Part shown: piece after piece, positions 18,053 to 31,605 of the stretch
Position numbering within the stretch: position 1 is the stretch's first letter
Layout of the letters: every line of letters starts with the position of its first letter
Sequence record: PQ657772.1
Length of the DNA: 64,000 bases
Strand: one strand, 5' to 3'
DNA from: Escherichia phage EC.P1
Notes under the pieces: generated by a model
What the model was told of the DNA's origin: nothing
Databases searched by the model: none
What the model saw: only the letters and a program-made list of their open reading frames with translations
Translations under genes and position numbers: made by a program

Positions 18053-18078
18053 TGCCAGTACTTGATACTGGCTTTTTT
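18053..18078 (+). terminator. rho-independent terminator (GCCAGTACT..ATACTGGC + T-run)
   Basis: hairpin + T-run. Confidence 0.65.
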
Positions 18079-18112
18079 GATTAAATATAGTATAATGAAT
18101 AAAGGAGGAAAT

Positions 18113-19222
18113 ATGTTACCTTTTGTAAGAATGGTTAAGTACGGGAATATTGCACCAGTACCGAAAAAAATAAAGAAAGTTATAGCAGGATATGATAATT
18201 TATATGTACTATATGGTGATGGTTCGCTATATGGTTGTGGAATCAATAACTATCAACAGTTAAATATTAATGGAACTGCTACACAAAATAATTGGGTACT
18301 AATTACCAATGGTGTTAGTAATGCATGGGCTGGTGGATACAATATTTTATATTTGAAAGAAGATAAATTTATAATGCACGGAACTAATGTCTCATTAGGT
18401 TTAGGAAATACTACAATTCCATTAGGTGGAGTAGATGTAACTTCTTCATTCCCAGATATCTCTAATATTAAAATGATATCCATTGGTTTTGATTCAATGC
18501 ACTATGTTAGTGCTGATGGTACAACTGTATATGGAAGAGGTATGAACACAAATGGTTCTGTTGGTTCAGGTAGTACTTACTCACAGAGTACTTTCACTTC
18601 AGTACTGAATAATGGAACTAATCAGGTTATTGATATATTTGGTAACGTTAATAATACAGTGCTTCTAACATCGAATGGTGAGCTTCGAGCATGTGGGACA
18701 AGTGCTTATGGTTCTATAGGAAATGAAACTGGTAAGTGGACATCGTTTGGTTTAAAATTATCTGGCACTAAAATAATGGGTGGTAATGGGTATAGTACGC
18801 TTGCATATACAAATTCGGGAATGTACCACTCAGGGTGGCAGTTAAATGGGGAACTAGGAAATGGTTTAGATACTAACGTACAGGTATATCCATTTCAATT
18901 TAACTCTAAAACGATAGATAGCAAGATAGATAAAATTGCCAAATCATCATCTGGGTCATATGTTAACATGTACTCAACAACAGAAGGAAAGATATATACG
19001 ACAGGTTCGTTTGGTAAAAACGGGTCAACTACTGCATTGAATTTGTTCACCAATACATTAACACTTATAAATTACAATCCAGATACCGCCTCGTTGTATA
19101 CGTGCACAAACTTCAGTGTTGTGTATGATGGTAATGAAACTATTGCTGTAAGTGGTAGTCCTACATATGTACCAGGGGGCGTTGCCGCTAATAGATGGAC
19201 TACAATTCCATTACCCAAGTAA
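18113..19222 (+). CDS. RCC1-like repeat protein, paralog 2 (MLPFVRMVKYGN; start trimmed)
   Basis: ATG 7 nt after AAGGAGG; the track's upstream extension runs through the terminator/promoter. Confidence 0.75.
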   Translation: MLPFVRMVKYGNIAPVPKKIKKVIAGYDNLYVLYGDGSLYGCGINNYQQLNINGTATQNNWVLITNGVSNAWAGGYNILYLKEDKFIMHGTNVSLGLGNTTIPLGGVDVTSSFPDISNIKMISIGFDSMHYVSADGTTVYGRGMNTNGSVGSGSTYSQSTFTSVLNNGTNQVIDIFGNVNNTVLLTSNGELRACGTSAYGSIGNETGKWTSFGLKLSGTKIMGGNGYSTLAYTNSGMYHSGWQLNGELGNGLDTNVQVYPFQFNSKTIDSKIDKIAKSSSGSYVNMYSTTEGKIYTTGSFGKNGSTTALNLFTNTLTLINYNPDTASLYTCTNFSVVYDGNETIAVSGSPTYVPGGVAANRWTTIPLPK

Positions 19223-19228
19223 TACTAT

Positions 19229-19258
19229 GCCAGTACTTGAGTACTGGCTTTTCTTTTT
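19229..19258 (+). terminator. rho-independent terminator
   Basis: GCCAGTACTTGAGTACTGGC + T-run. Confidence 0.65.
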
Positions 19259-19293
19259 GATTAAATATAGTATAATGAATAAAGGAGGGAAAT

Positions 19294-29016: not shown

Positions 29017-29051
29017 TGATTAAATATAGTATAATGAATAAAGGAGGAAAT

Positions 29052-30401
29052 ATGTTACCTTTTGCGAGAATGGTTAAGTACGGAAATAAAGTTGAAGCCT
29101 CTACTGTGAAGAAATTCGACTCCATTGGTATGGGTCATGATAGGAATGGTGGTGGTAATTGGTTTGGTGCAATATTAGCATCAAATGGAAATTTATATGG
29201 TATTGGTCAAACAAAATATGTTTCTTTTGGTATAACACCAACCAATGGTACAGGAATTGAATTAGTACGAAAAAATGTAAACAATTTTTGGCTACTATCA
29301 AATGGAATAATAGTTAAAGATAATGATGGTTCATATCATTTTTGTGGTGTATATGCAAATGGAATATTCACACATTCAAGTATAACTACAGCACCTTTTA
29401 TAACAAATGGTTTTATAAATGTATCTTCTTATTTTTCTAACGTAGGTGAAGTTGTGGAAATGGTATTCTGTGGTGGATATGATAAAGGTCCAGCAACATC
29501 ATTAACCCCAGCATACACTTCAAAATATAGTTGTATTTTGGCAGCATTGAACACTAATGGTGAAATCTGGTATATGGGTTTGTCGATTCAAGGTTTAATA
29601 AACAACTCCACATCAGATTACTACTTTACTTCTTTTACTAAAGATAATCAATTGACACAAAAAGCAGTTTCATTAAGATGCACAATAGACATGTCACATA
29701 ATAATGTGTATTTTGTTGGTAATAGACCTGTACTTTATGCCAAATTAGAAGATGGTACAATCGTAGGTAAGGGATATAATATACGATATGGTATACAAAA
29801 ACCAGCTAGTACAAACCAAGTGATTAAAACGTGGACTACAGTGGCTGTAATCGGAACAGCAGATGATTTTGATGCAACAAACGAAGGCATGATGTACTGC
29901 TCAAATTCACAACTATATCGCTGTGGTAATGGTGGTGGTTTTTCTTTCTGGAATGGTACAAGTAGTGTGTATTATATGGGCTACAACGTTGGTATGTTTC
30001 TAATCGGTGCGAATGACGTCAACCGTGTAGCGGGTGGTTTTAACGTCCTAACTACAGGGATTAAAGATGATGTAGGTATAAATGTACCAACTTCATCCAG
30101 TACCAAAATACGAATGAACTACTGTGGAACTGTAATTTTTGAACCCGGAACAACATCAATATATAAAGCACATGGTGTTTATAGTGATTACTATGCTAGT
30201 CCTTCATGGCAAGCGGGTGCAGTCGCTTCATTTACATATGAAGACATTGGTATTAAAATCAAAGATGCTATGTATGTTGGTGGTACTCTTGGGTTTACAA
30301 CATATGGATTATTAGTGGTTAGTACTGAAGGTAAGGTATATTGGAGAGGTGTGTACAACGGTGTAACATATCAAACACTCACAGAAATACATTTGTTGTA
30401 A
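29052..30401 (+). CDS. RCC1-like repeat protein, paralog 11 (MLPFARMVKYGN; start trimmed)
   Basis: longest copy (~449 aa). Confidence 0.7.
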   Translation: MLPFARMVKYGNKVEASTVKKFDSIGMGHDRNGGGNWFGAILASNGNLYGIGQTKYVSFGITPTNGTGIELVRKNVNNFWLLSNGIIVKDNDGSYHFCGVYANGIFTHSSITTAPFITNGFINVSSYFSNVGEVVEMVFCGGYDKGPATSLTPAYTSKYSCILAALNTNGEIWYMGLSIQGLINNSTSDYYFTSFTKDNQLTQKAVSLRCTIDMSHNNVYFVGNRPVLYAKLEDGTIVGKGYNIRYGIQKPASTNQVIKTWTTVAVIGTADDFDATNEGMMYCSNSQLYRCGNGGGFSFWNGTSSVYYMGYNVGMFLIGANDVNRVAGGFNVLTTGIKDDVGINVPTSSSTKIRMNYCGTVIFEPGTTSIYKAHGVYSDYYASPSWQAGAVASFTYEDIGIKIKDAMYVGGTLGFTTYGLLVVSTEGKVYWRGVYNGVTYQTLTEIHLL

Positions 30402-30407
30402 TATAGT

Positions 30408-30436
30408 GCCAGTACAGAGTACTGGCTTTTCTTTTT
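30408..30436 (+). terminator. rho-independent terminator
   Basis: GCCAGTACAGAGTACTGGC + T-run. Confidence 0.65.
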
Positions 30437-30471
30437 GATTAAATATAGTATAAAGAATAAAGGAGGGAATT

Positions 30472-31605
30472 ATGTTACCTTTTGCAAGAATGGTTAAGTA
30501 CGGGAATATAAAAGTAAAGAGTACTATCCAAAAAGTTATCCTTGGTGGTGGTCAATGTGTGGTAACATTACTCAGTGATGGTAGAGTGTATGGACGTGGT
30601 TACAACACTACACATGGGTTAGGTACTGGTACAACAACATTCGTAAGTGATTGGGTATTAATGGGAGATAATATTGTTGATATCCATTCAAATGGTGTTA
30701 CTGGAACATTCCTTATTACCAAAGAAAATAGAATATTGTATTCTGGTTTTGCGACACCAATCAATGGCACAACATCACATTATACACGTTTCACTGATTT
30801 AACATCAACTGTATTTGCTGCGGTGGATGTTAGTAATATTAAAACAATTACGGGAAATGGTAATGTTACAATGGTTCTTTTGAATGATGGTTCACTTTAT
30901 GGGAGTGGTGCAAATACAGGGGTTATAGGTAATGGTAGTAACGTTGCATTATCAACACAAACATATGTGACTAATGATGTGCGTGATGTGAAAACATATC
31001 CATCAATGAACACTATAACAAAAAATAATAATCAAATATTGGCTAGTGGTATTTTATACCAAGGCGTGAACGGTACAAATTCATCAATAAACACGTCTTC
31101 ATATACATTACTGTACACATTACCGAGTTCTGATTGTTTTCAATTTGCATTTGATACATATACATTTGGATATGTTGACCCTAGTACTAACACTTCTTAT
31201 ATAAGAGGTATACCAATAAATGGTTCATTAGGTAATGGCGTTACTAATAATACAGCAGTTACAACATGGGTTACTAAAGTTTGGAATACACCAATTGATA
31301 GTTCTATACCTAATAAATCATATACAACTAACCATGTCTCCTTGTTCAATGATGGAAACTTATGGACAACTGGTGCATCTAGTGTAGGTTATTCCAATGG
31401 TACAAATAGCACAACAGCTAATACATGGACCAGTTCATCTAATTTACCATTCAACACTAATAACATAACAGACTATGCTTTTGGTGGTAGTATTACTGTA
31501 GTGGTAATCGACTACAGGACTATGTACATACTAGCTAACAACGCCATTGCTGGTACTGCTACGACAACTTATAAATTTGAGCCATATAATTCTCCACCAG
31601 TTTAA
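30472..31605 (+). CDS. RCC1-like repeat protein, paralog 12 (MLPFARMVKYGN)
   Basis: family N-terminus and glycine motifs. Confidence 0.75.
   Translation: MLPFARMVKYGNIKVKSTIQKVILGGGQCVVTLLSDGRVYGRGYNTTHGLGTGTTTFVSDWVLMGDNIVDIHSNGVTGTFLITKENRILYSGFATPINGTTSHYTRFTDLTSTVFAAVDVSNIKTITGNGNVTMVLLNDGSLYGSGANTGVIGNGSNVALSTQTYVTNDVRDVKTYPSMNTITKNNNQILASGILYQGVNGTNSSINTSSYTLLYTLPSSDCFQFAFDTYTFGYVDPSTNTSYIRGIPINGSLGNGVTNNTAVTTWVTKVWNTPIDSSIPNKSYTTNHVSLFNDGNLWTTGASSVGYSNGTNSTTANTWTSSSNLPFNTNNITDYAFGGSITVVVIDYRTMYILANNAIAGTATTTYKFEPYNSPPV

Follow-up and report, generated by a model that had tools for sequence, protein, structure and literature searches.

The 64,000-nt stretch of Escherichia phage EC.P1 analysed here (sequence record PQ657772.1; hereafter the window) originates from an Asteriusvirus, a 121Q/PBECO4/RaK2-like jumbo myovirus of Escherichia coli, and carries on its plus strand an array of 13 genes for RCC1-like proteins, most of them preceded by a repeated cassette that contains a hairpin, the hexamers TAAATA and TATAAT and a Shine-Dalgarno (SD) sequence. 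Phage fEgEco12 matches the array region at 96% identity, and WPEC3 the part of the window from 42 to 60 kb at 99%. All 13 array genes open with ATGTTACCTTT, which encodes MLPF(V/A)R..YGN, and among these paralogues the cassette and codons 1-12 are near-identical, whereas amino-acid identity between the protein bodies is only 25-35%, a pattern typical of concerted evolution. A minus-strand open reading frame (ORF) at 31638-32288 breaks the array between its 12th and 13th genes. Array genes are named below by the position at which they start; please see Table 1 for the coordinates of all features.

Intergenic cassettes of the RCC1-like gene array

The repeat that the initial annotation placed before every array gene is real and far beyond chance, but it does not precede all of them. 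The 41-mer originally described has seven matches in the window with at most three mismatches (none expected), and a 19-nt core, AAATATAGTATAATGAATA, has nine (0.13 expected), all on the plus strand and directly 5' of array genes; three further array genes carry diverged versions of the form TAAATA-N3-TAT(A/G)A(T/C) and one has no box. Eleven array starts lie within 18076..30506, the range first assigned to the repeat, and the core was found at eight of these. Genes 20489 and 21746 have the diverged units tgTAAATActgTATGAT and tgTAAATAcatTATAAT, each having a different leader, and gene 22887, which directly adjoins gene 21746 without an intervening terminator, lacks a box but has kept its SD sequence. 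Outside this range, gene 16897 is preceded by ggTAAATAtgaTATAAT and gene 32366 by gatTAAATAaagTATAAC. Exact-match counts are the better measure of the repeat, as the ungapped identity of the -34..-1 segment is distorted by 1-nt insertions or deletions in the SD spacer.

Each unit starts a few bases past the upstream stop codon with a hairpin, GCCAGTACnnnGTACTGGC, and continues with a run of T, TTTTCTTTTT being one example. The array region contains 27 terminator-like sites, as against 5.9 ± 2.5 in shuffled sequences, and 12 hairpins, each followed by a T-run, fold at -8.1 to -17.2 kcal/mol with z-scores of -3.5 to -6.3 for eleven of them and -1.7 for one, placing stable terminators behind 12 of the 13 array genes. 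Equivalent hairpins had been marked as terminators independently by the annotators of phages G17 (ARNOLD) and Munch (CPT); an Rfam scan of the window returned no family at gathering score. The CTTTTC at the -35 position, initially taken as a feature of the promoter, is instead the U-tract of GCCAGTAC..GTACTGGC, the intrinsic terminator of the gene before. The sequence 16-18 bp 5' of TATAAT is T-rich and differs between units and phages (ttttctttttga, attcttatttgt, attattatttgt), and the units are near-invariant from TTAAATA onward, the T-tract before it not being conserved. Array promoters thus have no conserved -35 element, as had been claimed, because the T-run of a terminator occupies that position.

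The contrast drawn in the initial annotation with canonical early promoters was also confirmed. Sites of the form TTGACA-N16-18-TATAAT with at least 11 of 12 matches occur 33 times in the window (28 on the minus strand), compared with 4.2 ± 2.0 in shuffles, and none of the 33 lies at the start of an array gene; two-hexamer sites in the array region show no excess (81 versus 93.5). Many of the strong two-hexamer sigma70-type sites have an A-rich upstream region.

Conservation of the TAAATA box

The hexamer TAAATA, missed in the initial annotation, lies 3 nt 5' of TATAAT and precedes 12 of the 13 array genes at a distance of 32-37 nt from the ATG. All promoter-bearing units read TAAATA-N3-TAT(A/G)A(T/C/A), including four diverged unit types with different flanks. 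Across the window TAAATA is avoided about 4-fold (29 copies on both strands, 124.6 ± 10.5 expected), and array promoters account for 12 of the 29 copies; the array's sense strand has only two others, giving 14 in all. TATAAT is not avoided (156 copies, 128 ± 11 expected) and occurs 12 more times on the sense strand of the array region, in 11 cases within a coding sequence, so that a bare TATAAT is a poor discriminator. The perfect TATAAT is present in nine of the 12 units. Its T at -7 is lost in several Asteriusvirus units (TATAAC in two units of 121Q, in G17 and in unit 32366; TATAAA at 30449), and no Asteriusvirus unit has an altered TAAATA.

MLPF..YGN genes were compared from GAP32 and XbC2 (Mimasvirus), Salmonella phage Munch, Yersinia phage fHe-Yen9-04 and uncultivated jumbo-phage contigs from IMG/VR, five of six new contigs being used since the sixth had only units lacking an intergenic region. 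An exact-pattern scan of IMG/VR for the unit start identified only 121Q and one unrelated contig; the degenerate MLPF..YGN pattern reached other genera. (G/T)TAAATA was present in all 22 intergenic upstream regions of MLPF genes compared from other genera and uncultivated phages, and TAAATA was the only upstream block that is invariant across genera, all flanks having diverged. The hexamer that follows it drifts in both sequence and spacing (TATAAT, TATATT, TATTAT, TATACT, GATATT, TAATAT, GATGAT, ATAAGA, TAATTA, ATTACA). The Yersinia and Erwinia arrays are operonic with spacers of about 10 nt, and the loci covered gave no internal promoters; one intergenic Yersinia unit was obtained in the wider comparison. 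As judged from these sequence comparisons, TAAATA is the better-conserved and more specific of the two elements.

Late-type promoters of structural genes and candidate sigma factors

A late ATAAATA promoter class has already been predicted for the Rak2-like phages CBB and GAP32 (PMC5259590), and the genome papers of RaK2, Sharanji and fEgEco12 contain no promoter analysis. Motif counts in fEgEco12 covered 200 of its 375 kb (1-50, 150-250 and 300-350 kb), with the promoters of the sheath and tube genes (100-150 kb) lying outside. ATAAATA occurs 29 times in these 200 kb, 23 copies being placed 24-71 nt 5' of a gene start, and the annotations of these genes are mostly of major capsid, portal-region, baseplate, hub, tail fibre or 'virion structural' proteins. 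In 21 of the 23 promoters the base 6 nt 3' of the box is a purine, which is the geometry of T4, and T-tracts often precede the box. The promoters of the baseplate wedge gene g329 (gcttttctttttggATAAATA) and the tail fibre gene g353 (ATAAATAtagTATATA) have the same architecture as an array unit and are near-identical to it. The consensus of the fEgEco12 structural genes has A at -12, with C or G variants before some genes; among these promoters the TTAAATA form belongs to the array only. Within the window, ATAAATA precedes all three genes for virion structural proteins other than the RCC1-like ones.

The sigma factor encoded at 57339..58307, which the initial annotation had put forward as the reader of the array, can be aligned with RpoS, SigB and RpoD up to and including region 4. 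By this alignment it is a sigma70-family protein of full length that includes a domain for reading the -35, in contrast to T4 gp55, and for that reason a poor candidate for the array. A gp55-like factor is encoded in the close relative fEgEco12 by g336, which matches PHROG 12791 ('sigma factor for late transcription') with E = 1e-152 and PHROG 234 at 1e-16, adjoins recombination endonuclease genes and is encoded outside the region covered by the window. A sliding clamp is also encoded by fEgEco12. A more natural target of the factor at 57339..58307 would be the GnGACAaa-N~15-TGcTATAAT class found at fEgEco12 replication genes.

Eight RCC1-like 'DNA condensation' proteins have been detected by mass spectrometry in virions of Asteriusvirus phAPEC6 (PMC7247149), and the RCC1-like GAP32 gp1 is virion-associated (PMC5259590). 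Late synthesis of such proteins would therefore be expected.

A probable late promoter fused to a terminator

The repeated block is probably a terminator joined to a -35-independent T4-type late promoter, with TAAATA as its specificity element, and to a ribosome-binding site (RBS), which would make most array genes separate late transcription units; the exception would be 22887, which follows 21746 without an intervening terminator. The intrinsic terminator, formed by the hairpin GCCAGTACnnnGTACTGGC and its U-tract, would end transcription of the upstream RCC1-like gene, and the promoter would begin 2-4 nt further on with TAAATA, the core of the T4 late consensus TATAAATA. The AT-rich start region behind the box would read TATAAT by happenstance, and a strong SD sequence would complete the block. 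We infer the acting sigma factor, the start site and the timing as follows: host core RNA polymerase carrying the phage gp55-like late sigma factor, encoded outside the window, would open the DNA at TAAATA and start about 6 nt past it, within the 'TATAAT', yielding a leader of about 22 nt, and the proteins would be made late, for incorporation into virions. The proposal that the array belongs to a different temporal class from the early genes is supported, the class being most likely late, and the analogy with T4 late promoters turns out to hold more literally than was first seen, in that the TAAATA core itself lies 3 nt 5' of TATAAT.

Several observations weigh against this interpretation. 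The base at -12 is T (nine units and 32366) or G (three units) and not the A of the TATAAATA/nATAAATA consensus, and the predicted +1 is a T with A on both sides, in contrast to the purine of 21 of the 23 fEgEco12 late promoters. TTAAATA outside the array is not linked to gene starts in fEgEco12 (4 of 35, a chance-like proportion). A good -10-like hexamer occupies the corresponding place in only about 2 of the 23 canonical late promoters, and the TATAAT 3 nt past TAAATA is perfectly kept throughout Asteriusvirus and Munch, so TATAAT may have a function of its own. Finally, all units are paralogues homogenised by concerted evolution, and the cassette copies are therefore not independent observations.

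Should TATAAT be the functional element, it would be a sigma70-family -10 without a -35, read by host sigma70 (possibly altered by an AsiA-like factor) or by the sigma factor at 57339..58307, with a start about 7 nt downstream and an 11-nt leader. We regard this as unlikely, although the perfect hexamer of nine of the 12 units and its retention in G17, fEgEco12, 121Q and Munch speak for it, as does the presence in distant relatives of a -10-like hexamer 1-3 nt past TAAATA (TATACT in XbC2, TATTAT in GAP32_002, TATAAT or TATATT in four units from uncultivated contigs). The resemblance to sigma70 extended -10 promoters (TGnTATAAT), which are likewise -35-independent with a perfect -10 hexamer, is complete only at gene 16897 (TGATATAAT), which has TGaTATAAT, a true extended -10; the TG is missing in all internal units, which read TAGTATAAT and which, having neither TGn nor a -35, would be very weak for sigma70. 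This explanation would also have to accommodate the loss of the -7 T in several units (TATAAC, TATAAA), a predicted start for unit 32366 that falls inside the SD sequence, and the 12 other sense-strand copies of TATAAT in the array, which would be spurious promoters. GAP32_001 and roughly half of the distant homologues have not kept the hexamer, while all of them have TAAATA, and the factor at 57339..58307, which aligns through region 4, is better suited by the GnGACAaa/TGcTATAAT class.

Two further proposals assign a role to both boxes. TAAATA-N3-TATAAT could be a dedicated composite promoter of the MLPF/RCC1 family, either with dual sigma input and hence two-phase (host sigma70 or the factor at 57339..58307 possibly acting on TATAAT and the gp55-like sigma factor on TAAATA) or as a distinct G/T-TAAATA subclass that is read unlike ATAAATA; this is quite unlikely. 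That the two boxes are simply overlapping functional promoters, TAAATA serving the late gp55-like factor and TATAAT a sigma70-family factor, with two phases of expression or two start sites separated by about 10 nt, is in our judgement decidedly unlikely. It draws on the conservation of both boxes in the four diverged unit types of the window despite their diverged flanks, on the N3 spacing, fixed in Asteriusvirus and Munch, and on the relative rarity of such a hexamer in ordinary late promoters; the retention of TATAAT in Asteriusvirus and Munch together with this rarity is what keeps a composite or dual promoter conceivable. However, the objections raised above to TATAAT as a sigma70-type element apply equally, distant homologues keep TAAATA only, and an AT-rich segment past the box is normal in T4 late promoters (PMC2988020). 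It is hardly credible that the block is no promoter at all and is maintained by gene conversion or as a translation-initiation region, with the array read through from one upstream promoter. The near-identity of the cassette and first 12 codons above bodies of 25-35% identity is typical of concerted evolution, but the stable terminators behind 12 of the 13 genes make read-through alone unlikely. Moreover, 22887, the sole gene without a preceding terminator, keeps its SD sequence and lacks the boxes, as do the operonic genes of G17 and of the Yersinia and Erwinia phages, and TAAATA survives between genera where all flanking sequence has diverged.

Comparison with known late promoters

T4 late promoters lack a -35 element; they consist of the 8-bp TATAAATA, located at -10, and of an AT-rich segment behind it, and late transcripts run in either direction (PMC2988020). 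The proposed array promoter resembles this arrangement, in which TATAAATA occupies -13..-6 and is read by gp55 with gp33 and the gp45 clamp, in having no -35 element, the TAAATA core (T4 -11..-6) at the -10 position and an AT-rich segment, tagTATAAT, downstream; the array box is the T4 consensus minus its first two bases. As in T4, ATAAATA/TAAATA promoters would drive virion-protein genes on either strand, and close relatives encode a gp55-like sigma factor and a sliding clamp. Unlike in T4, the base at -12 is T or G and not A, that at -13 is variable, the predicted +1 is T and not a purine, a perfect TATAAT follows 3 nt on, and no gp33 homologue was identified. The ATAAATA promoters of fEgEco12 and those predicted for CBB and GAP32 (PMC5259590) come from the same phage group and share with the array the core, a comparable distance to the ATG and, often, a position right after a terminator T-tract (as at g329, gcttttctttttggATAAATA); the array differs from them in using TTAAATA/GTAAATA and in having its cassette homogenised over roughly a dozen paralogues in tandem. 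In Aeromonas phage Aeh1, late promoters have a/gC at -13/-12 with TAAATA kept (PMC2988020), indicating that a change at -13/-12 with TAAATA retained is tolerated in T4-family late promoters, although Aeh1 belongs to a different phage lineage and has C at -12 where the array has T or G.

T4-like late promoters in Rak2-like phages, virion-borne RCC1-like proteins and the tandem expansion of their genes have all been published, and no new mechanism is revealed here; the minor variant features are a -12 base that is G or T, a TATAAT immediately behind the box and the homogenised terminator-promoter cassettes. The analysis assigns the Asteriusvirus RCC1-like array to a transcription class, probably late and monocistronic, which fits its products being virion components, and extends the late-promoter logic predicted for CBB and GAP32 to Asteriusvirus. 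The avoided TAAATA box offers a simple sequence rule for annotating late genes in poorly annotated 350-kb genomes, and the array serves as a caution that a missing -35 can simply be the terminator of the previous gene.

Table 1. Coordinates of the array genes, their intergenic cassettes and other features in the window.
Feature	Position	Strand	Description
RCC1-like gene array	16897..33490	+	13 genes; Pfam RCC1-like domain, PHROG 4219
Array gene 1	16897-18045	+	
Array gene 2	18113-19222	+	
Array gene 3	19294-20415	+	
Array gene 4	20489-21670	+	
Array gene 5	21746-22876	+	
Array gene 6	22887-23996	+	
Array gene 7	24067-25246	+	frameshifted
Array gene 8	25317-26471	+	
Array gene 9	26548-27738	+	
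Array gene 10	27813-29000	+	
Array gene 11	29052-30401	+	
Array gene 12	30472-31605	+	
Array gene 13	32366-33490	+	
Promoter and RBS of first array gene	16865..16896	+	ggTAAATAtgaTATAATgaataaaggagg; only unit with TGn extended -10 context
Cassette before 18113	18054..18112	+	hairpin 18054-18072, T-tract, TAAATA 18082-18087, TATAAT 18091-18096, SD
Cassette before 19294	19229..19293	+	hairpin 19229-19248, TTTTCTTTTT, TAAATA 19262-19267, TATAAT 19271-19276, AAGGAGG
Diverged cassette before 20489	20422..20488	+	hairpin 20422-20445, T-tract, gTAAATA 20454-20459, TATGAT 20463-20468, different leader
Diverged cassette before 21746	21675..21745	+	hairpin 21675-21702, T-tract, gTAAATA 21710-21715, TATAAT 21719-21724
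Cassette before 24067	24003..24066	+	hairpin 24003-24021, T-tract, TAAATA 24035-24040, TATAAT 24044-24049, SD
Cassette before 25317	25251..25316	+	hairpin 25251-25276, T-tract, TAAATA 25286-25291, TATAAT 25295-25300, SD
Cassette before 26548	26477..26547	+	hairpin 26477-26504, T-tract, TAAATA 26516-26521, TATAAT 26525-26530, SD
Cassette before 27813	27746..27812	+	hairpin 27746-27764, T-tract, TAAATA 27782-27787, TATAAT 27791-27796, SD
Cassette before 29052	28989..29051	+	hairpin 28989-29007, T-tract, TAAATA 29021-29026, TATAAT 29030-29035, SD
Cassette before 30472	30408..30471	+	hairpin 30408-30426, T-tract, TAAATA 30440-30445, TATAAA 30449-30454 (-7 T lost), SD
Terminator hairpin after 30472-31605	31613..31629	+	no promoter box behind
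Promoter and RBS of last array gene	32335..32365	+	gatTAAATAaagTATAACacaaggag; hexamer ends in C; a sigma70-type start would lie inside SD
Terminator hairpin after last array gene	33495..33521	+	
Late-type ATAAATA box	44322..44328	-	5' of ORF 42763..44256 (fEgEco12 g555 homologue, annotated virion structural)
Late-type ATAAATA box	46037..46043	-	39 nt 5' of ORF 45621..46004 (fEgEco12 g551 homologue, annotated virion structural)
Phage sigma70-family sigma factor	57339..58307	-	Pfam regions 2 and 3; aligns through region 4
Canonical late-type promoter	63044..63059	+	ATAAATAcgtTATAAT; before virion structural gene (fEgEco12 g507 homologue) running off window end

The RCC1-like proteins and neighbouring genes

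The N-terminal dodecapeptide MLPF(V/A)RM(F/V)(D/K)YGN, encoded by the first 36 nt, is 84% identical among the paralogues, compared with 25-35% for the remainders. The same dodecapeptide was found in GAP32_002 (annotated 'virion structural protein', with no RCC1 annotation) and in XbC2_591 (688 amino acids), and lies at positions 525-560 and 1501-1536 of the GAP32 locus and 359-395 of a further locus (L017). It may be a virion-attachment or targeting module common to different cargo domains. The array gene at 24067-25246 is split by a frameshift into the plus-strand ORFs 24067..24246, which has the MLPF start, and 24170..25246, which holds the remainder; this could reflect a pseudogene, a sequencing error or a programmed frameshift.

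The region 11996-16793, adjoining the RCC1-like array, holds on the minus strand a second tandem gene family of about 25 back-to-back small ORFs (59-81 amino acids) that look like diverged paralogues, many starting with MN..EYY/FY and ending with ..L(I/V)(Y/F)(R/K)(Y/H). It is interrupted by the 219-amino-acid ORF 14134-14793, also on the minus strand, which together with the ORF at 31638-32288 forms a pair of proteins of about 217 amino acids each with no Pfam match; the counterparts of the latter are fEgEco12 g581 and G17_00082 of G17. In the fEgEco12 annotation g01-g56 (1-21 kb) recur as g615-g670 (353.7-374.7 kb), which marks a long direct terminal repeat; the RCC1-like array of this phage sits inside the right-hand copy by a few kb (about 5 kb).

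Other promoter classes and repeated motifs

The T4 middle MotA box is (a/t)(a/t)(a/t)TGCTT(t/c)A, centred at -30 and 11-13 bp from the -10. Within TTGATTAA, TGATTAA resembles such a box (5 of 7 positions) but lies 6 bp from TATAAT, and a MotA-box reading was rejected. TTGATT was likewise discarded as the -35 of a downstream -10, no usable hexamer being found at 16-18 bp, as was the TTGATA of the hairpin loop as a -35 for TATAGT, the spacing of which fits unit 18113 only.

The replication-gene promoters of fEgEco12, G(A/G)GACAaa-N~15-TGcTATAAT, combine a -35 variant with an extended -10 (for example at 208948, 216491, 221794, 231820, 238243 and 244720) and probably represent a middle class; the TGAAACG class described for CBB is comparable. 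Some early promoters on the minus strand of the window (at 37421, 36838, 42044, 45586, 49180 and 2393) have their -35 inside a terminator stem, reading GGGTTGACTTCGGTCAGCCC-TTTTTGC-TATAAT, with TTGACT lying in the 5' arm of a GC-rich hairpin with a TTCG loop and the T-tract as the spacer, which is a different terminator-promoter fusion from that of the array.

The window contains 57 copies of the palindrome CAGTACTG, where about one would be expected (for example at 188, 625, 6861, 8360, 11307, 39598 and 54924). In many early promoters it occupies the part of the spacer that adjoins the -10 (cagtactgTATAAT, ccagtactggCATAAT); it also forms the stems of the array terminators and may be a protein-binding or modification site. 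The motif CCCAnnGGGTGC has seven copies (0.9 expected), at 141-152(-), 2350(-), 6904(+), 8435(+), 8492(-), 10376(+) and 10592(+), on both strands and each about 25-35 nt downstream of a strong sigma70-like promoter. The segment from 10.0 to 12.0 kb contains promoters, no long ORFs and no Rfam match, and the CCCAnnGGGTGC sites may correspond to small RNAs or to a conserved leader element.

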